A DNA stretch of 64,000 nt from Verrucomicrobiota bacterium (lineage in GTDB: Bacteria; Verrucomicrobiota; Lentisphaeria; JABSQK01; JAJFLO01), in NCBI GenBank assembly GCA_021772615.1, contig JAJFLQ010000070.1:29145-93144 (forward strand). The letters run 5' to 3'. Shown piece by piece: positions 32,859-61,895 of the stretch. The notes below the pieces were generated by a model. The model did not search any database and was not told the origin of the DNA. It saw only the letters and a program-made list of their open reading frames with translations. How positions within the stretch are numbered: the stretch's first letter is position 1; the number at the start of each line of letters is the position of its first letter. The translations under genes were made by a program, and so were the position numbers.

Positions 32859-32930
32859 AAGAATAATTCCTTATTACAGACGTCTCGTTTATGAACGGTT
32901 CCGGATCACTGACGTGTTGCGGAAAGCGGT

Positions 32931-33485
32931 CTATCCGCGCTCAACCTGCCAGTATTCAACCTCGACCGGAGTGAAGCGGCCGAATATGCTGACTGATAAT
33001 TTCAGCTTGCCACGATCCGGATCAATGTTCTCAATTTTGCCCTCGAAGTTCTCAAATGCACCGTCTCGAATTTTGACTGTCTCGCCAATGTCAAAATCAA
33101 TCCGCGGCTTTGTTCCCTTATCGCCCTTGTTAAGCTGGTCCAGAATATCATTTACTTCGTCCTCGCTCAGCGGAGTAGGCCGATCCCCGCCAACGAATCC
33201 AATCGTTCCATTTGTATTCTGGATGTATGTCCATATGCGATCGTCTACCTGGTTGTCCTCGTTATAGAGAACCGCATTCAATAGGATATAACCGGGGAAA
33301 AATTTTCGGTTGATCGTTGTCTTGCGCCCGAGCTTAACCTCGGTTACTCGTTCCATCGGAATGAGCGCCTCGAAAATCAATTCGGTCATTTCCTCAAGTT
33401 CAAGGCGCTTGTCGATACTGTCCTTGACCTTCATTTCGTGACCGGATAGCGTTTGGACGACAAACCATTGTCCTTGTGTTTCCAT
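32931..33485 (-). CDS. nusG: Transcription termination/antitermination factor NusG.
   Basis: WFVVQTLSGHEMKVKDSI ... NGN and KOW regions (GETVKIRDGAFENFEGKIENID). 184 aa. Confidence 0.93.
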   Translation of the reverse strand: METQGQWFVVQTLSGHEMKVKDSIDKRLELEEMTELIFEALIPMERVTEVKLGRKTTINRKFFPGYILLNAVLYNEDNQVDDRIWTYIQNTNGTIGFVGGDRPTPLSEDEVNDILDQLNKGDKGTKPRIDFDIGETVKIRDGAFENFEGKIENIDPDRGKLKLSVSIFGRFTPVEVEYWQVERG

Positions 33486-33554
33486 CGATTGACCTTCCAG
33501 CAGGCTGAAACCTGTGCGCGGGTTACAAATGATAATTCGGTTCGTTTTGTGGAG

Positions 33555-33752
33555 CTACGAGAGAATGAAAAATCGTATCAGCTTCTGCGTCACCATATCG
33601 ACACTCCAGATGAATGCCGTCAGCATCAACAATGAGACGATGACAATCGCGGTCGATTCCAATAATTCATTGGTTGTCGGCCACGTGCATTTTTTGACTT
33701 CGCTTACGGTTTCGTCGTAAAACTGTCTGATTCTTGGAATTGGATTGACCAT
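33555..33752 (-). CDS. secE: Preprotein translocase subunit SecE.
   Basis: 65 aa with a single TM helix (TAIVIVSLLMLTAFIWSVD). Sits at the canonical position between tRNA-Trp and nusG. Confidence 0.85.
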   Translation of the reverse strand: MVNPIPRIRQFYDETVSEVKKCTWPTTNELLESTAIVIVSLLMLTAFIWSVDMVTQKLIRFFILS

Positions 33753-33848
33753 ACGTAACTAATGACCAGATTAAATTGGAGGTTGGCGCAGATGCCGCGA
33801 TAGGTCGGCATTTCGGCGCAGTCTCAGATGAAAGCGGCTGTCCCGGAG

Positions 33849-33924
33849 TGGCAGGTGAGACAGGGTTCGAACCTGCGACCTGCGGTTTTGGAGACCGCTG
33901 CTCTACCAGCTGAGCTACTCACCT
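33849..33924 (-). tRNA. tRNA-Trp (anticodon CCA), CCA end encoded.
   Basis: The reverse complement folds as a cloverleaf: AGGTGAG-TA-GCTC-AGCTGGTA-GAGC-A-GCGGT-CTCCAAA-ACCGC-AGGTC-GCAGG-TTCGAAC-CCTGT-CTCACCT-G-CCA. Confidence 0.9.
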
Positions 33925-34284
33925 ATCATTTGGCTGCAGTAATCCGGATTGATAAGGCGCCAGCTGGCTTGATGTCAGCGCGTGTTCTCCACCACGATCG
34001 AACGCAGTCCCATGTGCCGTTTTTAGCGCGTTTCTCTGTGAAGCGTGTGCTTCCGCTCAAATCTACAGTATTTCTTGAGTTCGATCCGACCCGGAGTCTT
34101 CCGCTTATTCTTTGTTGTTGAGTAATTTCGCCGTTTACACTCGGTGCATGCGAGGGTTATTATATCGCGAGGCATTCGGGAACCTGTAGGTACTGTTCAA
34201 TAAAAAGTAAGATACCCGGGCACGGAGCGTAACTCGCATCTCCGGGCTCGGGTAAAAAATGCTATACGGTTTTTGAGATGGATG

Positions 34285-35481
34285 CTATTCGATGATGTCC
34301 GTGACGCGACCTGCACCGACAGTGCGACCACCTTCACGTATCGCGAAGCGCAAGGTTTTCTCCATCGCAATAGGGGCAATCAGCTCCACGTCAAGCGCGA
34401 CGTTGTCGCCTGGCATGACCATTTCCGTGCCCTCCGGCAGGGATGCGACGCCGGTCACATCAGTTGTGCGAAAATAGAACTGCGGCCGATAGCCATTGAA
34501 AAACGGCGTGTGCCTGCCGCCTTCCTCTTTGCTGAGAACATACACCTCGCCCTTGAATTTGGTGTGCGGCGTGATTGTGCCGGGCTTGGCGAGTACCTGC
34601 CCGCGCTCGACGTCGTCTTTTTTCGTTCCACGCAACAGGCAGCCTATGTTGTCTCCCGCCTCGCCGCGGTCAAGGATCTTGCGGAACATTTCAACGCCGG
34701 TGACGGTGGTTTTCTTCGTGTTGTGTATGCCCACGATTTCGACTTCTTCGCCGGTTTTGATAATACCGCGCTCACAGCGTCCGGTGACGACCGTTCCGCG
34801 TCCCTCGATTGAGAATACATCCTCGATCGGCATGAGAAATGCCTTGTCCAAATCGCGGACCGGTTCGGGAATGTACTCATCGACAGCCGACATGAGGTCG
34901 ACAATAGCCTTGCAATTCTCATGGGTGGCATCGCCTCCCGCTTCCATTGCTTTCAAGGCAGATCCGAATATAATAGGAATGTCGTCGCCGGGGAACTCAT
35001 ATTTCGACAGCAACTCGCGAACTTCGAGTTCGACTAACTCAAGCAGCTCGTCATCGTCTACCTGGTCGACTTTGTTTACAAAAACAACCATTGCCGGTAC
35101 GCCGACCTGACGAGCGAGGAGAATGTGTTCGCGCGTTTGTGCCATGGGGCCGTCGGTGGCCGCGATCACCAGGATGGCGCCGTCCATTTGGGCGGCACCG
35201 GTAATCATGTTCTTCACATAGTCAGCGTGGCCCGGACAGTCGACATGCGCGTAGTGACGTTTCTCCGTCTGGTACTCTACGTGTGCTGTATTGATGGTAA
35301 TACCGCGTTCGCGCTCTTCCGGTGCGTTGTCGATTTCGGCATATGATTTCGCATCGCCGCCGAATGATTGGGAAAGCGTCATGGTGATAGCGGCTGTCAA
35401 TGTGGTCTTGCCGTGATCGACGTGGCCAATCGTGCCGATATTCAAGTGCGGTTTGTTGCGTTCAAAAACTGCTTTAGCCAT
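34285..35481 (-). CDS. tuf: Elongation factor Tu.
   Basis: [33 protein letters not shown] ... 398 aa full-length EF-Tu. Confidence 0.98.
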
Positions 35482-40625: not shown

Positions 40626-41057
40626 TTACATCATTTTATATTTGAATCGTACATTGCGGACATGCGCCGCGGGAGCGACCGACGTAACCGACAGGCGGTC
40701 GCCGGCCGGTATGCGTACGATGGTCCAGCGATACGCCGCCGGGTTTGCAATCATGGCATCATCATCGAACCATTCGAACCGATATTCAATGGTTCTGGTA
40801 CGGCGCGTGGTGTTGGCCAGGACGGCCTGTGCGGTGAGGAAATTTTTCACCATGCCGGACGTGGTGATCGATTCCAGGTGTATCTTCCGTGCCAACGCTG
40901 CGCTGGAGGTATCGCGTGTTTCATTATAGACGCTGGAATAGACCGGTCGTGTGAGCGTCACGCTATTTACCGGTCGCGTTGCGCACCCTGCGATTACCAA
41001 AATAATCGCAAGCAGCGCCACAAGGCGTCGGTGTTTTGGCATGCATATATTCTTCAT
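40626..41057 (-). CDS. Lipoprotein, YcfL-like (DUF1425 family).
   Basis: Lipobox VIAGC. IEYRFEWFDDDAMI ... YRWTIVRIPAGDRLSVTSVAPAAH ... resembles the YcfL pattern (HYRLYWYD ... SVTIPAHSAVTL). Overlaps the upstream gene by 4 nt. Confidence 0.55.
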   Translation of the reverse strand: MKNICMPKHRRLVALLAIILVIAGCATRPVNSVTLTRPVYSSVYNETRDTSSAALARKIHLESITTSGMVKNFLTAQAVLANTTRRTRTIEYRFEWFDDDAMIANPAAYRWTIVRIPAGDRLSVTSVAPAAHVRNVRFKYKMM

Positions 41058-42442
41058 CGCAGCACCATGATGTGGGTGAACATAATAGTATGATCCTCAA
41101 GTATCCGCACGTACACAAGCACGGCCTCTGCTTCCGGTATCGTGACCGTTGTTTTTTTCGCGCCGCCAGGACCGTGGATGGCTATTGCGCCACGATCCGG
41201 TTTCGTGAATCTGGCCACGTGAAACGCCTTCGGCAGTGTCAGCCAGCTGCGCTGGTCGGCGCGGTTCATTAGTATTGAAAATAACGTCGCGCCAATCTGT
41301 CCGAGCGCGCCGGCTTGTCGTTCCATTTCGATCTGGGCCGCTACCTTTGCCGCTGTGGCGGCAACTGTCCGTGCCGTAGCGATGCGCATCCATTGCTCGA
41401 ATTCAGCAGAAATAATGGAATCCATATCGGATACCATTGTTGTCCGCGCGAGTTCACGATCCCCGCTCAGCACCACCAGAGGCATATGCGGTGATCGCGA
41501 AAAGTGCAGTTTCGGGAATGCGACGCCGACGTGACTCACGTTATGCGCCGGCACCGGTACATCAATTCGCACCTCCTCCCGGCGCGGCGCCGATCCGACT
41601 TCTGCAATCAGGTAAACGACCGGATCAAGCGGCGCGCCCGAGAGCCTCGCCGCGGTGGCCTCAATATCCTGGTCGATATGGGTGTTGCTGCCGATCATCG
41701 CCGCGACGCGGTCAAAGTCAATGCGCGCACGCTCTATATCGGATGGGTCACTCGATGTTGTTGAAAACACGACACCGTCGAGATAGACGGTAAACGGGTT
41801 GACGAAGTCGGCGAATGCCGTCAGTTCCGTTGGAGACCTTTTGAGTCCCAATTGTTCCCGATAATTCGGGTTTTTCATTATCGTTGGTGCGACATGTTGC
41901 TGGTCCGCAGCGTCGGATTCCGCGCCGTGAATCGCGGACTGGTACCGATCGACCGCATCTTTCTGCCGTTGGTAGGCGCGTCGCAGTTCGACCCGGGCCC
42001 CGTCAGGCTGTCCCAGGCAGAGGTAGTTGAGGGCCTTGTACGTGTGGAGCATGATGCGATCATAAGCGTAGCCCTGGTACGGAATGGCGTTGGGATTGGT
42101 CATGATCCCGGCAAGGTTATTGCCGAGATCCCGCACACTCACCGACGCGCGGTCATCAAAGCTGTCAATTAGGGCCGCTGCCTGCTCGAATGCGGCATTG
42201 CTGCCCTCGAAATCACCGGCAGCGCGTCGAGATGCACCGCATTCGAGCCACCACAGCGCAGCATCCGTCGAATTCGCACGGCGTTTCGTCATCTTGCCAA
42301 GGTACCGGTTGGCGGCGTCAAGCCGTCCGTGTTGGTAATCCGGATAAAATCCGGCCGCCTGCGACGGGTAATCTCTGATGGTTGAGCATCCGGCAAGCAG
42401 CGCACCGGCGACGACGAAAAACGTGGCTGTAATACGATTCAT
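41054..42442 (-). CDS. Large lipoprotein of unknown function (~462 aa), third member of the lipoprotein cluster.
   Basis: Start chosen at MNRITATFFVVAGALLAGCST (lipobox LAGC). The ORF extends upstream to 42517. No recognisable catalytic motifs. Confidence 0.6.
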   Translation of the reverse strand: MNRITATFFVVAGALLAGCSTIRDYPSQAAGFYPDYQHGRLDAANRYLGKMTKRRANSTDAALWWLECGASRRAAGDFEGSNAAFEQAAALIDSFDDRASVSVRDLGNNLAGIMTNPNAIPYQGYAYDRIMLHTYKALNYLCLGQPDGARVELRRAYQRQKDAVDRYQSAIHGAESDAADQQHVAPTIMKNPNYREQLGLKRSPTELTAFADFVNPFTVYLDGVVFSTTSSDPSDIERARIDFDRVAAMIGSNTHIDQDIEATAARLSGAPLDPVVYLIAEVGSAPRREEVRIDVPVPAHNVSHVGVAFPKLHFSRSPHMPLVVLSGDRELARTTMVSDMDSIISAEFEQWMRIATARTVAATAAKVAAQIEMERQAGALGQIGATLFSILMNRADQRSWLTLPKAFHVARFTKPDRGAIAIHGPGGAKKTTVTIPEAEAVLVYVRILEDHTIMFTHIMVLR

Positions 42443-42715
42443 GGTACCGCTATCGACTACATGGTCCGCAGGAATGTTCCGTAATCTCATGTCTTGCCTC
42501 TGGTCTGCTTCATTCATACAACCTCGTCGCGAGGTTGCTTAGCGTGCTTCAGGTGAATGTGTTGCGGAGGTTTTGAGGTTGAAATGGTAGTGAATTGCCT
42601 TGATATCTCAAATCTTGATTTGAGCTGGCTTGCCAGTCCCGCGCCTGTGGGATTCTTCATAACGCGTTTAGATAATGTGCGATCTATAGCCGCAGCAGAG
42701 GTTGTATCAATGCAC

Positions 42716-45700
42716 TCAGGTTAGTTGCTGCAGGACCCGCAGAAGCTCGGTTACGCCCCAGGCCTGTGCTGTGCATCCGCGTTCGGTGTGCGGCGCGTTG
42801 CCGTCGAGGATCTCCGGTACATGTCCGATGCAGCCGCTGTTGATGATCACGGTGCTGCTGCCGAGAATGGCGAGAGCGGTATCCCGGCCGGCCTCTCCGT
42901 ACACAAGGTGCCATGCTTCGGCAAATGACGGAAACATCCAGGTCCAGGCCGTACCGTTATGGTAGGCAGGCTTTCGGCGCGTATCTTCGTCACCCGTGTA
43001 CGAGCCCCAGTATGGATTGCGGGGGTCGTTGAGGAGGGCTCCGTCGCGGTATACCGGGAGAGGTATGCGCACCGGGCGATCGGCAAGGCTACGAATAGCC
43101 CCGGGCACGATCAGCGTTTCGCACGCCGAAAGCATCTGCCGGCACAACGCAGCATCGCGCACGGCACCAAGCGTGATCGCCAACAGCTGATTCGGTCGCA
43201 GCGCGTCATCCTGCGTCGCTGCTGCCGCAGCAGTGTCGCGATTTCCGTGGAGGCAGTCGGACAAATAGCCGTTCTCGCCGGCATATAGTCGTATTATTGA
43301 GGCTCCCACCTGATCCGCCAACGATCGGAAGCGATCCAGTGCCAACCATTCAGCGGCAGCGTTCAATGCAGCGTACCACAGCGCCTGTATTTCGATCGGA
43401 TAGCCCTGGCGCGGTGTCCCTGCCGGATGGTTGGTGTCCATCCACGTGAAATGCGACGGGCTGTATATCAACCCGCTGTCCGGATCCATGCGGATGCCGT
43501 TCGGCGTACCTTCCATATATGACATGATGATCGAGCGGATAACCACGCGGAGCGGCCGACCGTTACAGGGGCGATCAAGCAGGTCGCTTGTGCCGTCGGC
43601 CTGGATCAGGTCGCGGCACGCCACGATAAACCACAGCGGCGCATCGGATGTATCGCGGTCACCGGTGTCCGCTCCATGAATCATATTCGGGAGGGTTCCG
43701 CGATCCTCGAATCCACCAAATTCGACGAGGATAGATCGGACATCTTCTTTGAGCCCTGCGGTAATCATACCTCGCGTGCAGATCAACGTGTCCCGGCCCC
43801 AGTCCAGAAACCATGGGTATCCCGCAATGACCGTTGCGTTCGCACCACGGGATACGACATACTGCGACGTCGCACGTTTCATGGTTTCGAGAATCGAATC
43901 GTCCGGCCACGATTCGACATGTTCATCGAGCACGACGGTGTCCGCCGGCGCCTCATTCGCCGCGCTTTCGGAATCATTCGCTCCGTGAATGACAGCACTC
44001 ACGACCGTCCGTCCGTCGTTGTCCAGATCGCATTTGAAGTAGCCGGGACTGAAGATGTCGGTATGCGTTTCGAGTCCGCGTGACGCTTCTGTCGGAAGGA
44101 AGACGTCGTACTGCCATTCCGGCGTCGGCTTGTACGTGCCGTTTGTGATGCGGATGGTCAGGCGACGATCGGGAGACGGCGCAAACACGACCTGCGTCCG
44201 GCCGATCGAGATGGCGCCGGGCCATCGTTGTTCCGGACCAGCCGAAGCCCTGGTTACCGCGTGAAAATTTCGATCATCAATGTCTGGACGGATTATCAGC
44301 GTCACTGGTTCGTTGTCCCATACCAGCTTGCGATTGTCGCCGGGCGGTGATTTCCGCTGAACAACCATGTGCAGCTGGTTGGTGGTTTCTGCCAGTCTCA
44401 ATCGTATCGACAGGCGCACCAGCTTTCCGTTCGCGCCGGGTATGGTATAGGTCCAGTGCGATGACATGTCGTTGAGCAGGTAGAGGCGGTCGAGACAGTC
44501 GATCCCGATTGCATGCGAAAAATTCCGCGAAACAACCCACATCCGATACCGCGTCAGCATTACCTGTCGCTCGTCCGGATAGTGGCGGTTGAGATTGCCG
44601 GCGAGCAATGCGTCGTACTTGCTCCGAATCTCGCCCAACGGTGCATTGGCCATGAGCATGGTTGCCCGCTGGTTGGCGGTCAGCACACGGAGGTTTCCGG
44701 CAGCCACGTCGGACTTGTCAAATGCCAGGCGTGCGACCGCAGCCCGGGCCGGCGCAAGGTAGAGCAGGCCTGCCCGTTCCCGACGGCAACCGTGCGCGCC
44801 ATATAGCGTCAGTTGTATGCCTATATTCTGATGCGTGTCGGGTGTCGTTCGGGGCGGAAGTAACACGAAATGCCGTCCGTTTTGCTGCGGCAGACTGGTC
44901 TCGCGGCCGGTTACGCGGTCGTGCTCCATCAGTTGCACGTGAAAGGGGGCATCGGCGATCATATAAACAGCGAAGCCGGGCGGCACCATCACCACGCGGT
45001 GAAGATCGACGGGCCAGGTCCATGACACATGTACGCGTTCGCCGCCCCGCGAGCAGATCGACTCGCAAAACGATACCGGATCGGCAAACAAGCGCTTGCC
45101 GGCCGCGACCGGGTCTGCATCATCGCAGCCGCTTAATCCCGTCACCCGGTAGATCAGCTCAAGCGCTTTGTGGCGCAATCGCTGGTGCACGATCCGGTGC
45201 GTTTTCGCCAATTCATCGATCACAACGCCGGACGGTGCTGCGGACGGTACTGGCGTAGTGAGGCACATGACGTCGCCGCTCTGAAGCATCACGCGGATGG
45301 TCCCGTCACGAACCGTTGTCGTCACCGGCTCCTTGGTGATGAGATCGATCACCTCCGCCGCTGTTCCGGTCGCATCGGCAAGCAGCCAACTCACAGGATT
45401 CGGCGTGTCGTGATCGAGATTTACCAGCACCAGCAGCCATTCCCCCGATTCGGGTGCGTAGCGGTAGAAGGCGATGCTGTTGCCGTCGCCCCGCTGTATC
45501 ATCCGGAGCTCGGCGTCGTCATGAAACGTGGCGTTGGTTGCCAGGATGTGATTCAATGTGGCGATAAACGCCACCTGGTTATTGGCCGAACCCCAATTCA
45601 GTGCGTTTGCTTCGTGCACATCGATCTTTTCGGCTGCATACCATTCGACGCCGTTGGCAAAGCCGTAGGCGCCCCGAACCGATGTGAGCGCCGCAAGCGC

Positions 45701-46993
45701 TGTACGCAACCTGGCAAAGGCTGGCGACACCGATGCCAGGCGGTTGTTGTCATGGGTCTCGGCGAAGTTCAGCATGATGCCCTCATGCAGTGAGATGTCT
45801 ATGGCTTTCGGCAGATAGCTCTCAATCGCGTCACGATGATAATTCTGGAAAAGTTCCGAATACGCCCAGTTCAAGTTTGCGTCAATGAGCAAGTCGCGTG
45901 TCACGCTCACCTTGCCTCCCAGGCCCTCAAGGAGGAACACGGTGTCCGGAAATTCGCCACGGACCGCGGCCACGATATACTCCCACGCCTTTACCGGAAC
46001 CTTATAACCGGCGTCGCACCGAAACCCGTCGACACCGCGTCTGCACCACGACAACATAACATCCGCCATGTACTGCCACAGGTCGTGGTGGCTGTAGTCC
46101 AATTTTATGAGATCCTCCCAGACGACGCCCCACGCTCCGGGAGAGGTGTAGGATCCGTCGTCGTTGCGAACGAACCATTCGGGATGATGCGCCTGTAATG
46201 TCGATGCCCAGCCAGTGTGGTTGATCGCAATGTCGAGAAAGATTTTTGCCTGACGTGCGTGCACTTCATCGACCAGTTCCGCGAATTGCGCCATCGGCGA
46301 TGCACCGCGATCGAAGTCTGCCAGACCCGCATCGACGTCGTGGAAGTCGAGGGCCGCGAACGGGCTTCCGAACCGTCCCATGCGGCCGTACACAGTCGGC
46401 GTCGGGTGGATCGGCAGCAATTGTATGATACGGCAGCCCAGCGTACCGACAATAAAATCAAGCTCGGCTATGAGGTCACGAAATGTGCCTGACGGCGGAA
46501 TGGCGGTGTAGTGTTGGCTGTCGAGCGTATCAAGGTCATCCCGGAACGTGTGGCTGGATGCCGCTGCATGCCTGGCCTGGCCAAATTGACGGATAAACGC
46601 ATTGTAGACGATGTTGCTGCAATAGTAATCGGCCGATTCGACTTTAATGTGAGTATTCTCCCCGTCGGGCCAGGCGGCTTCTATGTGTTTGTCGGGAAGA
46701 AAAAAGGCTTTGGCCTGGAAATGGCCGGGTTCCAGCATCGGGAGCACGAGGCGATAGGACGTCGGCGACGTGCGCAACATGGGGATGTCATGCCAATCCC
46801 GATTCTGTCGAGGAATGCCGGATATCGCCTCGGTCAATATCTCGCGTCGCGTCGTCGATGCGCGATCCCAGTTGGTACGCAACCACGCGTTGCCCGCGGC
46901 CGCACCCGAAAGATGCAGTTGAAAGGCTACCAGTTGCCCCTGGTATGCAATACGGCATGTCCCCGGCGGCGGTGTTTGCTGAACAGTAATCAC
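42716..46993 (-). CDS. Bifunctional-type glycogen debranching enzyme-like protein (1425 aa): GH13 alpha-amylase-family domain + C-terminal amylo-alpha-1,6-glucosidase (GDE_C) domain.
   Basis: GH13 regions (FLDIAINHTGW; GVDGFRCDAGYKVP). C-terminal AGYPWFLDWGRDT GDE hallmark plus a long (alpha/alpha)6-like tail. No signal peptide. Confidence 0.85.
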   Translation of the reverse strand: MITVQQTPPPGTCRIAYQGQLVAFQLHLSGAAAGNAWLRTNWDRASTTRREILTEAISGIPRQNRDWHDIPMLRTSPTSYRLVLPMLEPGHFQAKAFFLPDKHIEAAWPDGENTHIKVESADYYCSNIVYNAFIRQFGQARHAAASSHTFRDDLDTLDSQHYTAIPPSGTFRDLIAELDFIVGTLGCRIIQLLPIHPTPTVYGRMGRFGSPFAALDFHDVDAGLADFDRGASPMAQFAELVDEVHARQAKIFLDIAINHTGWASTLQAHHPEWFVRNDDGSYTSPGAWGVVWEDLIKLDYSHHDLWQYMADVMLSWCRRGVDGFRCDAGYKVPVKAWEYIVAAVRGEFPDTVFLLEGLGGKVSVTRDLLIDANLNWAYSELFQNYHRDAIESYLPKAIDISLHEGIMLNFAETHDNNRLASVSPAFARLRTALAALTSVRGAYGFANGVEWYAAEKIDVHEANALNWGSANNQVAFIATLNHILATNATFHDDAELRMIQRGDGNSIAFYRYAPESGEWLLVLVNLDHDTPNPVSWLLADATGTAAEVIDLITKEPVTTTVRDGTIRVMLQSGDVMCLTTPVPSAAPSGVVIDELAKTHRIVHQRLRHKALELIYRVTGLSGCDDADPVAAGKRLFADPVSFCESICSRGGERVHVSWTWPVDLHRVVMVPPGFAVYMIADAPFHVQLMEHDRVTGRETSLPQQNGRHFVLLPPRTTPDTHQNIGIQLTLYGAHGCRRERAGLLYLAPARAAVARLAFDKSDVAAGNLRVLTANQRATMLMANAPLGEIRSKYDALLAGNLNRHYPDERQVMLTRYRMWVVSRNFSHAIGIDCLDRLYLLNDMSSHWTYTIPGANGKLVRLSIRLRLAETTNQLHMVVQRKSPPGDNRKLVWDNEPVTLIIRPDIDDRNFHAVTRASAGPEQRWPGAISIGRTQVVFAPSPDRRLTIRITNGTYKPTPEWQYDVFLPTEASRGLETHTDIFSPGYFKCDLDNDGRTVVSAVIHGANDSESAANEAPADTVVLDEHVESWPDDSILETMKRATSQYVVSRGANATVIAGYPWFLDWGRDTLICTRGMITAGLKEDVRSILVEFGGFEDRGTLPNMIHGADTGDRDTSDAPLWFIVACRDLIQADGTSDLLDRPCNGRPLRVVIRSIIMSYMEGTPNGIRMDPDSGLIYSPSHFTWMDTNHPAGTPRQGYPIEIQALWYAALNAAAEWLALDRFRSLADQVGASIIRLYAGENGYLSDCLHGNRDTAAAAATQDDALRPNQLLAITLGAVRDAALCRQMLSACETLIVPGAIRSLADRPVRIPLPVYRDGALLNDPRNPYWGSYTGDEDTRRKPAYHNGTAWTWMFPSFAEAWHLVYGEAGRDTALAILGSSTVIINSGCIGHVPEILDGNAPHTERGCTAQAWGVTELLRVLQQLT

Positions 46994-51303: not shown

Positions 51304-51915
51304 TTACTTGCTGCGTTTGATCGAACAGCCGATCGATTTCGTCGCTGCCGGATCGATCACCTTGCCTGTGGCGAGGTTGGTGATTGCATCGCTCAGGTAG
51401 GTCTTGGTCACCTGCGATTCGTCCATGACACTGTCGTCCACGGCGCCGCGGTAGACCAGGTTCAGCGATTTGTTCAACAGAAAAACATGTGGTGTTCGCG
51501 TGGCGCCGAAGGCGTTGGCCAAAACAGCATCGGTGTCGAGTACATACGGAAAATCGTATTTGTTTTTCTTCGCGTGAGCCTTCATTGCGTCCATGGAATC
51601 AACCGTGTCATGCTGTGCTTCATTTGAGTTTACCAACACCATACCGACCTTGTTCTCGCGGCAGACCTTGCTGATCGCCAGGTATCGTTTTTCGCTGGCA
51701 ACCACATAAGGGCAGGTATTGCACGAAAAGACAACCAGCAATCCGTTCTCGCCGGCGACAGAGGCGAGCGCCACCGGCTTGCCCGAAACATCGGTTAACT
51801 TGATATCGGCCTTCGGCGCCTTCGCGCCTATTGCTAGTTCGTCGGCGACCTTGGCGCTGGCGGTTAAGGTCATTGCGGCACACAAGGCAGCGAGAAATAC
51901 GGATTTACTATTCAT
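51304..51915 (-). CDS. Secreted thioredoxin-fold protein (redoxin/AhpC-TSA family) with CNTC active site.
   Basis: Signal peptide. VVFSCNTCPYV. Redoxin-like length (203 aa). Confidence 0.75.
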   Translation of the reverse strand: MNSKSVFLAALCAAMTLTASAKVADELAIGAKAPKADIKLTDVSGKPVALASVAGENGLLVVFSCNTCPYVVASEKRYLAISKVCRENKVGMVLVNSNEAQHDTVDSMDAMKAHAKKNKYDFPYVLDTDAVLANAFGATRTPHVFLLNKSLNLVYRGAVDDSVMDESQVTKTYLSDAITNLATGKVIDPAATKSIGCSIKRSK

Positions 51916-51967: not shown

Positions 51968-52498
51968 TTATTTGGCGGTCGGCGCCATTGCTTTTCTTAC
52001 CAGCGTATCAAATTCCTCGTAGGTCGACATGCCTTCGAGAAATGTAACAGTATCGCCCGATACGTTCACAATCCGAGTTGCCGGAATTGCGCCGGTCCAT
52101 GCCGCGGATACCGCCGCAATAAAGGGCTCGTCTTTGCCGGTCTTCATATAGGTCGGCCAGTCAACGCCCTGCTTTTCGAGAAAGCGAATCACACTCGATT
52201 CCGCTCCCGGGAAGTCGACCGATACAAACACGACCTGCAGCCGATCGCCGTATGATTTCTGCAGCTTAACGATATCGGGGAACTCTTTTACACAAGGCGG
52301 ACACCACGTGGCCCAGACATTCACCAGGACAGCCTTCTTGCCCGCATACCCATTGACGACCTGCGCCAGCTCGTTGCCGGTCACCGTCTTTAATTGCGGC
52401 ACCCCGAATTCCGCGGCACCGCCATTGAAGACGGTCATCAGCAAAAGCAGGATCACGGATATCTGCCGTTTTTGAAAAATCGATCGCGTGTCGGTCAT
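51968..52498 (-). CDS. TlpA/ResA-like thiol:disulfide oxidoreductase.
   Basis: N-terminal TM/signal segment. VLVNVWATWCPPCVKEFPDI. Confidence 0.85.
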   Translation of the reverse strand: MTDTRSIFQKRQISVILLLLMTVFNGGAAEFGVPQLKTVTGNELAQVVNGYAGKKAVLVNVWATWCPPCVKEFPDIVKLQKSYGDRLQVVFVSVDFPGAESSVIRFLEKQGVDWPTYMKTGKDEPFIAAVSAAWTGAIPATRIVNVSGDTVTFLEGMSTYEEFDTLVRKAMAPTAK

Positions 52499-52805: not shown

Positions 52806-54419
52806 CTATTTGATTATCCCAGCCGAGGTCAACTCACGGTAACGACGGCTGATCTCTTTCTCGAATACGTCCTTTATGCCCGGAATATTTCCGATCAGCG
52901 ATTCGAAATCGCTGCGGCTGATAGACATGACATCAACCGTCGTGACCGTTCGTACGGATGCGCTGCGGGAGGTGCCGGTAAACAATGCCATCTCGCCAAA
53001 GTACTGTTTTGCGTACAGTCGGGCGACAGCGCGTTCTGTGGCAGTGCCCTCGTCAATAATTACCTCGACCTCACCGCCGACGATGACGTACATGCGATCA
53101 CCGGGATCGCCCTGACGAAAGATAAAATCGCCGGCCTCATAGTGTTCCAGCGAAAAACTTTCACTGGGATCGATCTTTAACTGCACCAGATCTCGCGGCA
53201 GAATCAGGTCGAGCGCCCAGTCGACGCCGACACGAATCTTGCGATCGAGACCCGGCATCTTCCACCAGTACAGCGTGCGCCAGAAGAACCACGCCGGTAA
53301 TCCCGAAACCGCAAATCCCATCACCTCGACAACGGCGGAGCGGCGACCGAGCGCACCCGCTTTGCCCAGACCGGAAAAACCGAATCGGCGGCGTCCTGTG
53401 GCGCCGCGATGGGATGCGACAACGTTCGCCGCTGCCACGGCCGCCTGCCGAACTGCGAACTGCGCCGTCGGCGGCGATGGCGTACCGTCCGGCTGGATGA
53501 TCTGCGCGCAGTCGCCGACGGCCCAGTGATGTTCCAGATTCGGCATGGCCAGGGTCGGGTCGGTGATGATGCGGCCGTTCTCTTTCGCACATTGCAGCGC
53601 GGTGACCAGTGGATGCGGCGCCGATGGCACCGTGGAAATCAGTGTTCGTGCGTCGATCTTGCGGCCGCTCTTTAGGACTACCGTATCGGCCGTGGCTTCC
53701 GTAACCCGGTCGTCCAGGAAAAACTCCACACCGCGGCGCTCCAGAATCCGCCGGGCATAGTCCCCGAGACGCGGCGTAAGTTCCGGCAGAATTCGGTCGC
53801 GCGAATGGACCAGGATCACGCGAAACTTCTCATCAGACCGCAGGCGTATGACTTTACGAACTTCGTAAATAAAATCATTAATCTCCGCGGCCACCTCGAC
53901 GCCCGAGAAGCCGCCGCCGGTGACTACGAAAGATAAGAGACTGCGCCGAATCTCCGGGTCCTGTTCCACGGCGGCCTCTTCCAGTACTTGAATTATGCGG
54001 TTGCGTACCAGCAGTGCATCGGCCATATTCTTGAAAGGAAGGGCGTGTTCCTTGAGTCCCGGCATCGACGAGAAATCGTTCACGGTTCCGAGGGCAACGA
54101 TGAGGTAATCGTAAGGAACCTCCAGCGGCCGCGGTCCGAATCCCGGCGCCGTAGTCACCACCTTTCGCTGGAGGTCTATTTCTTCGATCTCCCGGCTGAT
54201 AAGCTGGGCGCCGGGGCACAGCCGCCGAATCGGCGTGATGCAGTGCAACAGATCGATACTGCCGGATATTACCTCCGGCAGCAGCGGCTGGAAAACCATG
54301 TAGTTTTCGCGATTGATCACTGTGACGTCAAGGGCGTCAACGGACCTGAGCAGCTTGCCAAGATGCATTGCTGCGTACACGCCGCCGAATCCGCCTCCGG
54401 CTATTACGACATGTTTCAT
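52806..54419 (-). CDS. Type II NADH dehydrogenase (NDH-2)-like flavoprotein fused to a C-terminal cyclic-nucleotide-binding domain.
   Basis: VVIAGGGFGGVYAA dinucleotide-binding motif and a second GGGFSGVE motif. C-terminal ~120 aa with FGEMALFTGTSRSASVRTVTTVDV cNMP-binding signature. Confidence 0.85.
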   Translation of the reverse strand: MKHVVIAGGGFGGVYAAMHLGKLLRSVDALDVTVINRENYMVFQPLLPEVISGSIDLLHCITPIRRLCPGAQLISREIEEIDLQRKVVTTAPGFGPRPLEVPYDYLIVALGTVNDFSSMPGLKEHALPFKNMADALLVRNRIIQVLEEAAVEQDPEIRRSLLSFVVTGGGFSGVEVAAEINDFIYEVRKVIRLRSDEKFRVILVHSRDRILPELTPRLGDYARRILERRGVEFFLDDRVTEATADTVVLKSGRKIDARTLISTVPSAPHPLVTALQCAKENGRIITDPTLAMPNLEHHWAVGDCAQIIQPDGTPSPPTAQFAVRQAAVAAANVVASHRGATGRRRFGFSGLGKAGALGRRSAVVEVMGFAVSGLPAWFFWRTLYWWKMPGLDRKIRVGVDWALDLILPRDLVQLKIDPSESFSLEHYEAGDFIFRQGDPGDRMYVIVGGEVEVIIDEGTATERAVARLYAKQYFGEMALFTGTSRSASVRTVTTVDVMSISRSDFESLIGNIPGIKDVFEKEISRRYRELTSAGIIK

Positions 54420-54469
54420 GCCGGAAGCGTAACGTAATTTTCGCCGAAATCAATGTGGCGCCGAAGCGC

Positions 54470-55582
54470 ATGAATTTCGTGCGACTGGTCAATCTCTTAC
54501 AGCAGGTCCTGAAAATTATGTTTGTTCTCCTTCTCGTTGCAGGCCTGCTGCTGCTGGTCGCGGGCGCCGAGGCGCTGGTTCGCGGCGCCTCGCGTCTGGC
54601 TGCCGTTGCCGGTATTTCGCCGTTGATCATCGGGCTTTCGGTCGTCGCTTTCGGCACCAGCGCACCCGAACTTGCGGTCAGCATCAAGGCCGGCCTGTCC
54701 GGTCAGGCCGGTATCGCCGTCGGCAACGTCATTGGCAGCAATATCTTCAATATCCTGCTGATCCTTGGTCTGTCGGCTGTAATCGCGCCCCTGACCGTCT
54801 CGCAGCAACTGATCCGCTCCGACGTGCCCGTGATGGTCGCGGCATCGTTCGCGATGTACGCTCTCGCGTGCGACGCCCGTTTCAGCAGGGCCGACGGTCT
54901 ATTGCTTGTCACCGGCCTGCTGGTCTATACCGCGGTCCTGTTCCGCCTCAGCCGCAACGCGTCGGAGACGGGTGCCGAAGATCCACCGTCGGCTCCGGTG
55001 CAATCGACCTGGCGCCGTGATCTAATGCTCGTGGCAGGTGGGCTGGTATTGCTGGTCATCGGCTCGAATTGGCTGGTCAATGCCGCAGTGGCGATTGCCA
55101 GGCTGATGGGCGTGAGTGACGTCATTATCGGGCTCACGATTGTTTCGGCCGGCACGTCGTTGCCGGAACTGGTCACGTCCGTGGTGGCGAGCTTTCGTGG
55201 GGAACGCGATATCGCCGTCGGCAACGTGGTCGGCAGCAATCTGTTCAATATTCTCGGCGTGCTCGGGATCTCGTCCGTGCTGGCGCCGGCCGGGATCGCG
55301 GTGGCGCCGGGCGTTATCGGCTTCGACCTGCCGGTGATGTGCGCGGTTGCGTTTGCGTGTCTGCCGATTTTCTTCACCGACGGCATGATCTCCCGGTGGG
55401 AGGGCAGTCTGCTGGTCGGCTATTATCTGGCGTATACCGCCTTTCTCATTCTGGCTGCCGGGCCGGGCGGCGGTCTGGCCCCGGTCTATGGTGCGGCGAT
55501 GCGGTATTTTGTGATCCCGCTGACGCTGATAACGCTCTTGTTGCTAGCCGCCATTGCGGCCCGGAAACATCGTCAACGATGA
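54470..55582 (+). CDS. Ca2+/cation antiporter (CaCA, YrbG-type).
   Basis: Two alpha-repeat motifs, GTSAPELAVSI and GTSLPELVTSV. ~10 TM helices. The ORF extends upstream to 54368 but would then overlap the converging NDH-2 gene. Confidence 0.85.
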   Translation: MNFVRLVNLLQQVLKIMFVLLLVAGLLLLVAGAEALVRGASRLAAVAGISPLIIGLSVVAFGTSAPELAVSIKAGLSGQAGIAVGNVIGSNIFNILLILGLSAVIAPLTVSQQLIRSDVPVMVAASFAMYALACDARFSRADGLLLVTGLLVYTAVLFRLSRNASETGAEDPPSAPVQSTWRRDLMLVAGGLVLLVIGSNWLVNAAVAIARLMGVSDVIIGLTIVSAGTSLPELVTSVVASFRGERDIAVGNVVGSNLFNILGVLGISSVLAPAGIAVAPGVIGFDLPVMCAVAFACLPIFFTDGMISRWEGSLLVGYYLAYTAFLILAAGPGGGLAPVYGAAMRYFVIPLTLITLLLLAAIAARKHRQR

Positions 55583-57568: not shown

Positions 57569-58021
57569 ATGGCAGTAAGCCTGCAGGAGTTGCAAAATTA
57601 CAGCATGTTCGGCGGCGTCTCCGACGCGGCCATCGAATTCATTCTCGAACATGTCAGGCTGGTCGAGTTCGCGAGTGATGAGGTGATTTTTCGATCCGGC
57701 GACAACGGCGACGAGATCTGCTTTATCCTCGATGGCGAAGTCAGTATTAGGTTGGATGGCGTCGAATTGGCAGCGTTGCAGAAAGGCGAGCAATTTGGTG
57801 AAATGCATCTCATCGATGTCATGCCGCGCAGCGCCAATGTGATCGGCACCCGCGCCGGTCGCCTTCTGATCCTGACCAACAAGGATCTCCTGAAACTCCG
57901 GCAGTTTGATCACGAAGCGTTTGTGCTGCTGCTGATGAACTGCAGCCGCGACATCAGTCGTCGTCTTCGCATCATGAGCCAGAAATACGCCAAACTCGCC
58001 GTGAATCCGACCGACGGTTGA
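57569..58021 (+). CDS. Stand-alone cyclic-nucleotide-binding domain protein (150 aa, no DNA-binding domain).
   Basis: FGEMHLIDVMPRSANVIGTRAGRLLIL cNMP-binding signature. Confidence 0.8.
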   Translation: MAVSLQELQNYSMFGGVSDAAIEFILEHVRLVEFASDEVIFRSGDNGDEICFILDGEVSIRLDGVELAALQKGEQFGEMHLIDVMPRSANVIGTRAGRLLILTNKDLLKLRQFDHEAFVLLLMNCSRDISRRLRIMSQKYAKLAVNPTDG

Positions 58022-58303: not shown

Positions 58304-59890
58304 CTACAGATCGCCGGCGGTGTTCACGCTCTGGATCGTAATCGGATCGGTCGATACATCGCCAAATCCGCTGCGTACGGCGTCTACGCGCAGCACCGGG
58401 TTGGCGCCGGATGCATCAACCGTCATGTCGGCAGTGACGGCCGCCGAATCAAAGTTGGTGATATCATTCACGCGTTGCGCGGGCACCACGACACGAAGCA
58501 CATCTCCTTGTGCAAAGGCATTGAACCCGGGAGAATCCAGATACATCGTCATCGGCGCGGTTGGCGGCAACATGCTTGTGTCAGCCTGTGACGGCACCGA
58601 CAGACCCGCTATTGATCCGCCGTCGGCGACAAGGACAACCCAGTGCACGTGGTACACGGCGCCGTCTGCAGCATCATCGTACACGCCATTGAAATTCTCG
58701 TCCCATAACGGAGTGTCGTCGAAATCCGGATGCGTCGTAACAGCCAGAGCCAACGTCCCGGCCTGTCCCTTAAATCCCACCGTCTCGGGAGTTAACGATG
58801 TGAGAAACACATAGCCGAGCACAGGTGCTCCGTCGACGCTGCCGTTTGCTACTGGAGTCTGTACCGCGACCTGTGCACCGGCCACGTCGATTGCGAACAC
58901 CAGCGTGTCGATCGATTGAACGTAGCTGACGGTAGCAGATTCGATAATGAGCGAATCGCTGTTTTCGGCGGTTGACGTCGCCGGCCACGCATTGTCCGGC
59001 GCTGTGCTCAAATTCGTAATCGGCGTGCCCGACAATGCTTCGCTGTCATAGATTTTCTCGACCGTAAGCAACGGCGTAGCGGCGGATGCATCGACCTGCA
59101 TGAATGCGGTAACGGCGGCGCTCACTTCGAAGGTCTTGTTGCGGCGCACCCGATCCAGCGGCACGATGACACTGATCGTGTTGCCGTCTTCGATAACCGC
59201 GAAGCCGGGCGAGTCGAGGTACATGGCCATTGGCGCTGTTGGCGGCAGCGGGTCGGCCGCGGTGTTCTGCAATACAGCCAGTCCTGTCGGTGCACGGTCG
59301 TCCTCGCCTAGCACAACCCAGTGCGAATGGTAGACCACTCCGTCGTCATCGTACGCCTGATTGTTGTCCTCATCCCACAATGGTGTGTCGTCAAAGTCCG
59401 GATGCGATGTAATCGCGAGCCCGACCGTGCCCGTCACACTGCCGAATCCAACCTCCTCCGGCGTCAATGTCGTCAGAAACACATAACCCAGCACCGGGGC
59501 GCCGTCGACGCTGCCCGCGGGCAGCGGCTTGACTGAGCCGGCGTCCGCCAATGCTTCTACCGAGAACACGATCGAATCGAGATTCGGTTCGTACACGGCC
59601 GCAGCCGAATTGATCTGGAAGGCGTCGTTGTCCACGTACAATTCACCTTGTACGAGATTCGCCTCGCGCAGGCCGTCACGGAGCGTGTCAATCTCGCATT
59701 GCAGCCCGTTAATAAAGTCAACTATCGCGTCGAAGTTCGCGTTTACTTCCGACGCCTTGGCCGGCGTCCCGGCAACGAATTCGTGCGGGATCGTTATCGA
59801 GTCCTGGCAATCGCCCTGACCAGCAGCCTGCTGTATGCCGATCACCTGTGCCAGCGACGTTAAGGCGACCGCAACAAGAGCATGACGCAT
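58304..59890 (-). CDS. Secreted protein of unknown function built from two tandem ~235-aa homologous units.
   Basis: Signal peptide MRHALVAVALTSLAQVIGIQQAAG. Each unit contains GSVDGAPVLGYVFLT[ST]LTPE[ET]VGF, HPDFDDTPLWDE, VYH[SV]HWVVL and LPPTAPM[AT]MYLDSPGF. The ORF extends to 59974. Confidence 0.75.
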   Translation of the reverse strand: MRHALVAVALTSLAQVIGIQQAAGQGDCQDSITIPHEFVAGTPAKASEVNANFDAIVDFINGLQCEIDTLRDGLREANLVQGELYVDNDAFQINSAAAVYEPNLDSIVFSVEALADAGSVKPLPAGSVDGAPVLGYVFLTTLTPEEVGFGSVTGTVGLAITSHPDFDDTPLWDEDNNQAYDDDGVVYHSHWVVLGEDDRAPTGLAVLQNTAADPLPPTAPMAMYLDSPGFAVIEDGNTISVIVPLDRVRRNKTFEVSAAVTAFMQVDASAATPLLTVEKIYDSEALSGTPITNLSTAPDNAWPATSTAENSDSLIIESATVSYVQSIDTLVFAIDVAGAQVAVQTPVANGSVDGAPVLGYVFLTSLTPETVGFKGQAGTLALAVTTHPDFDDTPLWDENFNGVYDDAADGAVYHVHWVVLVADGGSIAGLSVPSQADTSMLPPTAPMTMYLDSPGFNAFAQGDVLRVVVPAQRVNDITNFDSAAVTADMTVDASGANPVLRVDAVRSGFGDVSTDPITIQSVNTAGDL

Positions 59891-60019
59891 GCGGTTGGTC
59901 CACCATACACTACTCACAGATGCATGTAAGGCGTTGACTTCGGGATTGGATGAATCTTTTGATATGCTCAACATGATAGTACTCCGGTTGTTTGGTTTTA
60001 ATCTAAGTTGGTTAGTGCC

Positions 60020-60796
60020 TCAGGGATTCGACGCCTCAAGATCGACGGGGACACTTGAATCGCTCCCTGAGAATACCCAATGCCCCCGAGACGGAAGTAA
60101 CTCGTCGGTCGTGACAAATTTGGTTGCGTCCCACACCCATACAACGCCGGATATCGTGTTTCCGAGCATATTGCCTATGGTGTTGTTGTCTGGAATTCTC
60201 GCAACCGACAACAGGTTCCAGCCGCTGGTTAATGTAATGTCGTATTGCGTCGGGTCTCTACCGCGGTCGAGCTCCTGTTGATCCGTCAGACCGTCACCGT
60301 CCTTGTCGACTATGGCCAGGTCGACGGCCTCATCTTCGTTGGTCACGACGTCGACCAGATTCACCAGAATGTAACCGGTTTGATCATTCATATTTCTGAA
60401 ATCCGATACTTCCTGGCGCAATTCTGCGCTCGATAATACGGATTCGAATTCAATAAACCACTTATCATCTGTCCATGTCATCGTGTTCCACAGGCTTTGT
60501 GCGGCGTGTGGAAAGGCCAATACGGTGTCGTTCAGGCGGTCGATCACGGTATCCTGATTGCGAATGACATCATCTCGTTCGGCAATCACAACGTCCCGTG
60601 CCGCTTCCGCTACGGTCACAGCGTCGGCTACGATCTGATCTACTTCACTTTGGGTAAAAAGTACCTCGAACCAATTATCCCAGTCCCAGGACATCCGATC
60701 CCAATTGCTGCTTGCACCGCCAATCGTCGGCAACATGAATGCGATGAGTATTACACATCCCGTCCATTTCATCGTGATCGCCATTATGATCCTCAA
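60020..60796 (-). CDS. Small secreted Ca-binding protein (DKDGDGLTD loop) carrying the shared C-terminal GWNLLS / VWVWD / GHWVF / VDLE module.
   Basis: N-terminal hydrophobic segment. DxDxDG loop. C-terminus aligns with the C-termini of the 10264..14811 and 917..9217 proteins. Confidence 0.7.
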   Translation of the reverse strand: MRIIMAITMKWTGCVILIAFMLPTIGGASSNWDRMSWDWDNWFEVLFTQSEVDQIVADAVTVAEAARDVVIAERDDVIRNQDTVIDRLNDTVLAFPHAAQSLWNTMTWTDDKWFIEFESVLSSAELRQEVSDFRNMNDQTGYILVNLVDVVTNEDEAVDLAIVDKDGDGLTDQQELDRGRDPTQYDITLTSGWNLLSVARIPDNNTIGNMLGNTISGVVWVWDATKFVTTDELLPSRGHWVFSGSDSSVPVDLEASNP

Positions 60797-61208
60797 ATTA
60801 TCCTGATTTCCGCGTAGTGCGTTTGCTATATTTCCCGCGCCAATCTATGACACCCATACCGTTCTCTGTTCACGCTCCCGACCTTATTCTTCATCAGTGA
60901 TGAAAATGCGAACCACGTTGGAGCTGTCACAGCTTCAGGTGCGGCTTTTCCCGCGCATCGCTGCTGAAACGCAAACAATCTCGCATACGGCGACTGTGAA
61001 CGCCAACACAGATCCTCAGAGCAACGACATCAAAACGCGACATTATCACTCACTGCGATCACTTTCCAATTGAATAATGACATGTTTGAAGATTTTTGAT
61101 CGGACACAGATCGATTGAGAATGAAAAGCGGCTTGATATCGTTTCGAGAGGGTGTTAGAATTTTCCCTATGAATCGCCACATCGTTGCCTTACGGAAAGG
61201 ATCTGGAT

Positions 61209-61895
61209 ATGAACACGATGATCAGATTGTTGATTTTTATGATGTATGTTCCGGGTGTTCAAGCAGAATTCATCACATTCACGGATAAGGCGGATTTTTT
61301 ATTCATCACGGGAGCGACGAATGTGACTGGGATGTTGCCGGACATAGGCGCTATATCGGGAGGTGCGAATGGCGTGCAGTCAGTCGGCTCCGTCATATTT
61401 AGTGTAGCTGCACCAAGCTTGGGCTTTTTCATGGGGACGAATGAGGTGGCGGGAGTCACGAACAATGATTGGACATTACGTCTGCCAGGTCCGGACATCG
61501 CCATAAGCGCCGGCGAGAATCTGAATATGACGTTAAGCGGCCCCGCTTTTTCAGTGGGTTTTGACATTGCGGAACCGGAAAACGATCCCAATGTTGACTC
61601 TTTCGTCGACTCGACGTTTATGGTCACCCTGAAAAATGATGAATTGTTTGTTGATTCTTTTATGTTTAACCCCCCGAATGACACCGCCGCGTTTTTCGGA
61701 GTGTGGGGAGATATAGTGTTTGATCGGATTGAGATACGCGAAACCATCGGCGGCAATGACGATGAGTTTTTCGGTCAAGTCTATGCGGGATCGTCGGCCA
61801 TTCCGGAACCGTCGACATACATGCTTTTTTTAACCCTTCTTACCGGTCTTGTCTTCCTCCGGCACAAGCGTTGGGAATCGATCGCCGAGATGTAA
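61209..61895 (+). CDS. PEP-CTERM sorting-domain protein (exosortase substrate).
   Basis: Signal peptide MNTMIRLLIFMMYVPGVQAE. C-terminal IPEPSTYMLFLTLLTGLVFLRHKRW has the PEP motif, a TM helix and a basic tail. The ORF is open from 61185. Confidence 0.8.
   Translation: MNTMIRLLIFMMYVPGVQAEFITFTDKADFLFITGATNVTGMLPDIGAISGGANGVQSVGSVIFSVAAPSLGFFMGTNEVAGVTNNDWTLRLPGPDIAISAGENLNMTLSGPAFSVGFDIAEPENDPNVDSFVDSTFMVTLKNDELFVDSFMFNPPNDTAAFFGVWGDIVFDRIEIRETIGGNDDEFFGQVYAGSSAIPEPSTYMLFLTLLTGLVFLRHKRWESIAEM

Follow-up and report, generated by a model that had tools for sequence, protein, structure and literature searches.

A conserved fusion of an NDH-2-type flavoprotein with a cyclic-nucleotide-binding domain in Verrucomicrobiota and other environmental bacteria

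NDH-2 enzymes (type II NADH dehydrogenases) are the simplest route of electrons into bacterial respiratory chains and do not pump protons, so that respiratory efficiency is set by how the flux is divided between NDH-2 and complex I. To our knowledge, the control of bacterial NDH-2 has been described so far mostly at the transcriptional level. Here, we describe a gene whose product joins an NDH-2-type flavoprotein to a C-terminal cyclic-nucleotide-binding (CNB) domain, below referred to as the fusion protein. The gene is located in a 64,000-nucleotide stretch of DNA (the window) from a Verrucomicrobiota bacterium (GenBank assembly GCA_021772615.1, contig JAJFLQ010000070.1, positions 29,145 to 93,144 of the forward strand), and it had been singled out in an earlier note made from the sequence alone.

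The nearest precedent, and the one case that we encountered of a ligand sensor fused to NDH-2, is the EF-hand insertion of the Ca2+-regulated NDH-2s of plants and fungi, which demonstrates that a ligand sensor can be built into such an enzyme (PMC5299459). In those proteins the sensor is inserted after the GD motif and responds to Ca2+, whereas in the fusion protein it is a module that follows the membrane anchor and bears a cyclic-nucleotide signature. On the side of the sensor, the closest described systems are the CNB domains of MloK1, of the regulatory subunits of protein kinase A (PKA-R), and of PKG. These share with the fusion protein the beta-roll, the cassette FGE.AL....R[ST]A[ST], and, as far as its predicted structure shows, the lid helices alphaB and alphaC; they differ in that here, in the same prediction, an NDH-2 anchor helix and a 15-residue conserved linker take the place of alphaA/N3A, and in that they act on kinases or channels and not on a flavoenzyme. 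The mycobacterial cAMP-dependent acetyltransferase Pat, for which allosteric regulation has been demonstrated, resembles the fusion protein in having a CNB fused to a catalytic domain and in the logic of allosteric cAMP control. The catalytic domain and the domain order are different, however, and for the fusion protein the regulation is only predicted; the Pat model of NCBIfam matches its CNB region below threshold.

No precedent for direct cyclic-nucleotide control of respiratory or redox electron input in bacteria was found in the literature, nor was any description of an NDH-2/CNB fusion, with subscription journals mostly outside the coverage, so that this absence is not proof. One candidate publication (PMC13332983) was rejected, as it deals with a hydrogenase cluster. 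The parts of the protein are well-known domain families; the novelty lies in their combination, which is present in databases and for which we found no published description.

The gene is a single uninterrupted open reading frame (ORF) for 537 amino acids (aa), with an ATG start and a stop codon at 52806–52808, and contains neither in-frame stops nor frameshifts. In the Pfam scan, Pyr_redox_2 covers residues 3–326 (130.8 bits, E 8.9e-38, cut-off 26.1) and cNMP_binding covers residues 425–509 (79.6 bits, E 1.7e-22, cut-off 27.5), both scores being far in excess of chance. Within the former region, Pyr_redox matches residues 164–246 (42.7 bits). The match of NDH2_C at residues 357–410 (22.8 bits) is under its cut-off of 27.7; the same model reaches 42–48 bits in a group of longer relatives (long forms, see below). 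The earlier note had proposed a complete NDH-2-type module with two Rossmann folds, followed in frame by a cyclic-nucleotide-binding domain. Both parts were recovered: Pfam, HMMER, AlphaFold2, and Foldseek place the first at residues 1–406, including the C-terminal membrane-anchor helices, and the CNB occupies residues 422–532. That note had also considered that the C-terminal segment might fall short of the domain threshold, or that a frameshift might conceal two genes; the margin over the threshold is about 50 bits, and a single ORF holds the two collinear parts both here and in all homologues examined.

Assignment of the first module to the NDH-2 family is supported by both sequence and structure. 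The AlphaFold2 model, for which an alignment of 119 sequences of the fusion family (alignment A1) served as input, has a mean pLDDT of 88.6 and a pTM of 0.80. The top HMMER matches in the PDB are all NDH-2 (9mqy, 4nwz, 9pxk, 5na1; E from ~1e-38 to 1e-29): mycobacterial NDH2 (9mqy) aligns over residues 3–422, and the others include the enzymes of C. thermarum (4nwz), B. subtilis (YjlD), and S. aureus (5na1). Likewise, the top ranks of the Foldseek search against the PDB contain only NDH-2, the C. thermarum enzyme (4nwz/5kmp) coming first with TM 0.90–0.91, a root-mean-square deviation (rmsd) of 2.3 Å over ~405 columns, and 29% identity, followed by the mycobacterial, S. aureus, yeast, and Plasmodium enzymes. 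Overall, the solved NDH-2s share the fold at TM 0.83–0.91 and 24–29% identity. Sulfide:quinone oxidoreductase (SQR) and FSP1 superpose less well (TM 0.73–0.76, larger rmsd), as do CoADR/persulfide-reductase entries (TM ~0.5, larger rmsd). No solved structure containing both an NDH-2 and a CNB module was found by Foldseek in the PDB.

We compared the module with the conserved elements defined by Marreiros et al. on 1762 NDH-2s (PMC5299459). The two dinucleotide motifs, GGGFGG (residues 8–13) and GGGFSGVE (residues 168–175), are invariant or nearly so in the fusion family. Catalytic Glu175 is the counterpart of S. aureus E172 (PMC5299459), and the carboxylates E175/E179/D182/E186 match the S. 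aureus proton wire E172/E176/D179/E183. The GD motif (G302-D303) and three C-terminal glycines (G352, G358, G373) are invariant in the family. The quinone-site motif A319-Q-F-A-V-R324 is of the AQxAxR type, a variant present in 15% of NDH-2s (PMC5299459). In the AlphaFold2 model, the core is followed by an aromatic-rich helix at 374–387 (LPAWFFWRTLYWWK) and an amphipathic helix at 391–406 (LDRKIRVGVDWALDLI, hydrophobic moment 0.59), which, as modeled, are the counterparts of the amphipathic helices that anchor NDH-2s to the membrane. Hence, the catalytic and membrane-anchor module is complete. The fusion protein shares with NDH-2s both GxGxxG motifs, the catalytic Glu, GD, AQxAx[QR], the three C-terminal glycines, and the two anchor helices, and differs from them in the extra 130-residue C-terminal CNB, in STVP in place of WxxG, and in His205 in place of an acidic residue.

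The CNB consists, in the AlphaFold2 model, of a beta-roll with strands within residues 422–501, a short helix (476–481) in the cassette, alphaB (502–511), and alphaC (513–532); alphaB and alphaC are present, and no alphaA/N3A helix is predicted N-terminal to the beta-roll. Its top matches in the PDB search are apicomplexan PKG, PKA regulatory subunits, MloK1, Epac, and mycobacterial Crp. The signature of the cassette, i.e., Gly-Glu for the ribose 2'-OH and Arg-[ST]-Ala for the phosphate, is present as F474-G-E476 and R485-S-A487. Among 168 short-form relatives, F474 is retained in 166, G475 in 167, E476 in 164, R485 in 164, and A487 in 161. By this pattern, the phosphate-binding cassette is canonical and under strong purifying selection. 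Alignment A1 shows no variation at R526 of alphaC; this residue aligns with R348 of MloK1, which we take to be the lid arginine of that protein, and the two domains are 41% identical over their length, the MloK1 sequence being the one we presume for this channel and in agreement with the coordinates of the PDB matches. The residue following Arg485 is variable (S, N, T, M), so that the sequence does not distinguish between cAMP and cGMP.

The fusion is a conserved family and not a peculiarity of one genome. All 120 best homologues (50–70% identity) carry Pyr_redox_2 and cNMP_binding, with source annotations reading only 'FAD-dependent oxidoreductase' or 'NADH dehydrogenase'. A scan of GTDB with one genome per species returned 80 loci, and in each of them the match extends into the CNB region. 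These loci come from at least eight phyla, including Verrucomicrobiota, Planctomycetota, Methylomirabilota, Solirubrobacterales, Dadabacteria, Thermodesulfobacteriota, Spirochaetia, and Acidobacteriota. A search with residues 345–537 yielded, among 150 matches listed, at least ~26 full-length representatives of 50%-identity clusters with a single match spanning the junction; this is a lower bound, as the matches are dominated by proteins with multiple CNBs. Some of the representatives are 755–1465 aa long, and thus further architectures exist. Complete genomes with the fusion gene are on record as well (e.g., OY970379.1 and CP121322.1). The architecture called non-standard in the earlier note is therefore so only relative to characterised NDH-2s and the PDB, where the fusion is absent; in environmental bacteria it is common. 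We regard the architecture and its conservation as solid.

A trivial origin of the fusion, an assembly error or a frameshift that joins two separate genes, has a virtually nil probability. The ORF is intact, the identical protein is found in two independent sources (a 135-kb NCBI contig and a Logan contig), the same collinear order is seen in 120/120 homologues and 80/80 loci, and the junction is free of insertions and deletions (indels).

The junction is the part of the protein that bears most directly on coupling between the modules. The segment from W401 to G437 is 37 residues long in 200/200 family sequences, at 37–70% identity and across many phyla. W401 is invariant, and linker residues P408, V412, and Q413 are conserved at ≥90% in alignment A1. 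The conserved 15-residue linker that connects the second anchor helix to the beta-roll is modeled as coil with pLDDT ~65. Changes in length should be tolerated in a flexible tether, and the indel-free junction is thus our main argument for a CNB that is rigidly, i.e., mechanically, coupled to the region of the membrane anchor and the quinone site.

Approximately 31 of the 80 GTDB loci encode long forms of ~680 aa with a pair of CBS domains C-terminal to the CNB. These proteins, from Dadabacteria, Thermodesulfobacteriota, Bryobacterales, Spirochaetia, and Opitutales, are homologous to the fusion protein over all 537 residues (37–41% identity) and have a junction of equal length; they differ in the ~150 extra residues that hold the CBS pair. 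The CBS pair suggests that the scaffold of the fusion protein has here gained another nucleotide sensor, one for adenylates. A subgroup of long forms from Verrucomicrobiota has an altered cassette, FGERALL..W-R-[YF], in which Trp occupies the position of the phosphate-binding Arg and Arg is shifted by one residue.

Based on these observations, we propose, with moderate confidence, that the fusion protein is a monotopic, cytoplasm-facing NAD(P)H:quinone oxidoreductase of the NDH-2 fold, whose activity or membrane engagement is allosterically controlled by cAMP or cGMP. Allosteric control is favoured because the cassette is near-invariant in the short forms and the 37-residue junction is free of indels, and such regulation is plausible. 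The binding of a cyclic nucleotide at the cassette would reposition the alphaB and alphaC helices, and the rigid junction would transmit this shift to the membrane-anchor helices. As the anchor helices of NDH-2 form the membrane interface beside the quinone site, their displacement might gate access of quinone or docking at the membrane. Most likely, if other CNB-controlled enzymes (PKA, PKG, Epac, and mycobacterial Pat) are a guide, the nucleotide would relieve autoinhibition. In physiological terms, a second messenger would set, post-translationally, the entry of electrons into the quinone pool by a route that does not pump protons. A 59%-identical relative of the fusion gene adjoins a cytochrome oxidase cluster (COX2/CtaA/CtaB/SCO1), which speaks in favour of this proposal, as do the CBS pair of the long forms and a stand-alone CNB protein encoded near the gene in the window (see below). 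All functions assigned to the protein here are ones that we infer.

At the dinucleotide site, the family departs from other NDH-2s at two positions. S262-T-V-P265 aligns in the HMMER alignments with the WxxG motif of 9mqy (WSAG) and 4nwz (WTGG). Trp occurs at position 262 in none of 199 family members, which have Ser, Ala, or Cys instead; the Gly is retained only in the long forms. WxxG is conserved in 99–100% of the 1762 NDH-2s, and its role in orienting NAD(P)H is a hypothesis only (PMC5299459). His205 is aligned with Asp in 9mqy, Glu in 4nwz, and E272 of yeast Ndi1; in the same 199 sequences this position holds His in 165, Gln in 32, a gap in two, and an acidic residue in none. Characterised NADH-specific NDH-2s have Glu or Asp at this position, where beta-strand 2 of the NAD(H) domain ends. 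The acidic residue has been proposed to exclude NADPH, while NAD(P)H specificity is not reliably predicted from a single residue (PMC11670749). Since His205 replaces the acidic residue and the Trp of WxxG is missing, the enzyme may take its electrons from NADPH or from both dinucleotides, and the role of a respiratory NADH dehydrogenase is not assured. As WxxG is near-universal, has no proven catalytic role, and is absent here, the protein is, by its motifs, best described as a divergent NDH-2-type enzyme and not as a canonical NDH-2.

Several observations weigh against cyclic-nucleotide control of an NAD(P)H:quinone oxidoreductase. With the near-universal WxxG and the acidic specificity residue both lacking, neither the donor nor even the reduction of quinone is assured. 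That the CNB contacts the anchor helices we infer only from the order of the parts in the sequence and the invariant length of the junction, and which way the regulation would run is guessed from analogous enzymes. The altered cassette in a subgroup of verrucomicrobial long forms shows that the CNB can drift away from classical cyclic-nucleotide binding. Further, no cyclase was seen among the window ORFs scanned with Pfam, and no conserved operon or genomic partner of the fusion gene was found across the 80 loci and the window.

The dinucleotide site lends itself to a different account, in which cyclic nucleotides control an NADPH-dependent reductase of quinone or another acceptor that, like enzymes of the FSP1/AIF type, serves in redox defence or against oxidative stress and not as a respiratory NADH dehydrogenase. 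The family-wide His or Gln at the place of the NADPH-excluding acidic residue and the absent adenine-side Trp of WxxG agree with it, as do thiol- or peroxide-type neighbours in several lineages (TlpA-like redoxins here, OsmC in locus L085, DsbD_N). We consider this account unlikely, though with a tangible share of the probability: a single residue is an unreliable guide to the choice between NADH and NADPH (PMC11670749), structural similarity to FSP1 and SQR is clearly below that to NDH-2, the thiol-redox neighbours are not conserved across the family, and one relative adjoins cytochrome oxidase genes. Two other accounts concern the sensor. A CNB that binds no ligand, being a structural, dimerisation, or localisation module only, would be compatible with the altered cassette in some verrucomicrobial long forms and with the lack of a cyclase in the scanned parts of the window. 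Its probability is low given that the ribose-binding Glu, the phosphate-binding Arg, the Gly, and the Ala are kept here and across the short forms, and that the cassette is close to that of MloK1, as far as the presumed MloK1 sequence, consistent with the PDB matches, is concerned. Finally, some effector domains of the CRP/FNR family employ the CNB fold to sense compounds other than cyclic mononucleotides, and CRP and NtcA are among the sub-threshold NCBIfam matches of the fusion protein. A sensor of this kind seems very improbable here, as the best matches are genuine cyclic-nucleotide binders (PKG, PKA-R, MloK1) and the specific FGE...R[ST]A signature is intact and conserved.

Three other identities of the protein were considered and rejected. 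It is not a CRP/FNR regulator, because no helix-turn-helix follows the CNB in the Pfam scan: the protein ends five residues past alphaC, and the CRP match of NCBIfam scores 52 bits against a cut-off of 266 and covers the CNB only. A CNB-fused thioredoxin or disulfide reductase is contradicted by the cysteine content (only C60, C68, C277, and C304, with no CxxC), and the NCBIfam models for CoADR, lipoamide dehydrogenase, and MerA score far under their cut-offs. Similarly, SQR was rejected: the type III model gives 38 bits against a cut-off of 525 and matches the N-terminus only, the superposition on SQR has TM 0.73–0.75 with rmsd of 4–7 Å, and the cysteine pattern is not conserved.

If cyclic nucleotides do control the NDH-2-type enzyme, the family would offer a case in which the control of electron input by a second messenger can be tested directly. 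Bacterial cAMP/cGMP signalling would gain a new class of output, and the fusion would be a natural NDH-2 scaffold that a ligand can switch; its atypical dinucleotide site also raises the question of donor specificity. A broader and doubtful extension, to which we give a small chance, is that this widespread NDH-2-type clade forms a second-messenger-gated entry to the quinone pool, in which the cyclic nucleotide would switch quinone access or docking via the junction, NADPH rather than NADH would be the donor, and the CBS-containing long forms would add sensing of adenylates or energy charge. Coordinates of the features discussed are given in Table 1.

Table 1. Features of the fusion gene in the window and examples of long-form relatives (residue numbers refer to the 537-aa protein)
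Feature	Coordinates	Strand	Basis
Complete gene, NDH-2-type flavoprotein with C-terminal CNB	52806..54419	(-)	ORF list; Pfam; identical protein on record
Catalytic core, residues 1–373: FAD and NAD(P)H Rossmann domains, C-terminal beta-sheet	53301..54419	(-)	Pfam, HMMER, Foldseek
FAD-binding GxGxxG motif, GGGFGG, residues 8–13	54381..54398	(-)	G8, G10, G13 invariant in alignment A1
NAD(P)H-site GxGxxGxE motif, GGGFSGVE, residues 168–175, with catalytic Glu175	53895..53918	(-)	Motif definition of PMC5299459
His205-Ser206, end of beta-strand 2 of the second Rossmann fold	53802..53807	(-)	HMMER alignments to 9mqy and 4nwz
S-T-V-P, residues 262–265, at the NDH-2 WxxG position	53625..53636	(-)	Alignments to 9mqy and 4nwz
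Quinone-site motif, AQxAxR variant, AQFAVR, residues 319–324	53448..53465	(-)	Motif classes of PMC5299459
Two predicted membrane-anchor helices, residues 374–406, LPAWFFWRTLYWWK and LDRKIRVGVDWALDLI	53202..53300	(-)	AlphaFold2 helices, NDH2_C match, hydrophobic moment
Conserved junction LPRDLVQLKIDPSES, residues 407–421, without a predicted alphaA/N3A helix	53157..53201	(-)	AlphaFold2 coil, pLDDT ~65
CNB domain, residues 422–532: beta-roll, phosphate-binding-cassette helix, alphaB, long alphaC	52824..53156	(-)	Pfam, PDB matches, AlphaFold2
Phosphate-binding cassette FGEMALFTGTSRSASVRTVT, residues 474–493, with Gly475-Glu476 and Arg485-Ser486-Ala487	52941..53000	(-)	Motif quoted in the earlier note
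Long-form relatives	L048-L081, e.g., L055:5292-7319, L063:5593-7662, L066:4705-6753		CNB and CBS pair

The genomic context of the fusion gene was analyzed by clustering the ORFs of the 80 loci and the window. Recurring neighbours are lineage-specific only: Planctomycetota and Bryobacter share a sulfatase, Dadabacteria-like lineages share DsbD_N, and Opitutales share a GlcD-like FAD oxidase. No neighbour of the fusion gene in the window recurs among the 80 related loci, and the neighbours in three closer relatives (59–70% identity) are likewise unrelated. Thiol-redox genes appear elsewhere in an inconsistent manner, DsbD_N being upstream in Dadabacteria, Thermodesulfobacteriota, and Spirochaetia and OsmC upstream in L085.

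In the window, a divergently transcribed gene for a Na+/Ca2+ exchanger (54470..55582, (+)) is located upstream, separated by a ~50-bp gap (54420..54469) according to the gene calls of the contig; the longest ORF in the exchanger frame begins earlier, at a TTG at 54368. With only ~50 bp between the starts, the promoters of the two genes must overlap. A gene for a PQQ_2 beta-propeller also lies upstream and is divergent from the fusion gene. Downstream, on the same strand and after a gap of 307 bp, are two tandem genes for TlpA/Redoxin-type proteins (51304..51915 and 51968..52498, both (-)), which have N-terminal signal or anchor sequences, one of them with a WCPPC motif. A search for a promoter, a terminator, and a CRP-like site around the fusion gene gave nothing above the shuffled expectation. 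At a distance of 3 kb, there is a gene for a stand-alone 150-aa CNB protein (57569..58021, (+)) with a cNMP_binding score of 54.6 bits and an intact cassette, FGEMHLIDVMPRSANV; this protein shares 30% identity with the fused CNB and lacks an output domain. The presence of this protein nearby suggests that the organism probably uses cyclic-nucleotide signalling.

In the 59%-identical relative (L082), a gap of 1 bp separates the fusion gene from a downstream gene for an 822-aa Ser/Thr kinase (Pkinase/ABC1; L082:8637-11105), beyond which are a PAS-GAF histidine kinase and response regulators. The cytochrome oxidase cluster of that locus (COX2/CtaA/CtaB/SCO1/DUF420; L082:1-4001) is situated 3–7 kb upstream, with PhoX and S-methyl_trans genes in between.

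The fusion gene is chromosomal, as the window holds genes for rpoB, rpoC, EF-Tu, EF-G, and ribosomal proteins. This core gene cluster spans 18923..35481 and contains rpoB at 26679..30554 and rpoC at 22318..26580; the ORFs for EF-G, EF-Tu, and ribosomal proteins were named from their size and order, RpoB alone having been checked by a search. In that search, the best named relatives of RpoB came from Lentisphaeria/Lentisphaerae metagenome-assembled genomes (64–71% identity), with further relatives reaching 79%, which places the organism among uncultured Lentisphaerota. The Rfam matches in the window are two tRNAs only (33852–33924 and 35643–35715). Window ORFs were scanned with Pfam at thresholds of E 1e-3 and E 1e-4. 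Sizeable ORFs with no Pfam match at these thresholds lie at 58304..59974 ((-), 556 aa), 41054..42517 ((-), 487 aa), 60020..60796 ((-), 258 aa), and 61185..61895 ((+), 236 aa). Two giant repeat proteins, of 2766 aa (917..9217, (+)) and 1523 aa (10240..14811, (+)), carry Big_9, Cadherin_4/5, and CHRD domains, with PD40 in the second, and are presumably surface adhesins. A 1425-aa protein encoded at 42716..46993 (-) combines an alpha-amylase catalytic domain with the glycogen-debranching domains GDE_N and GDE_C.

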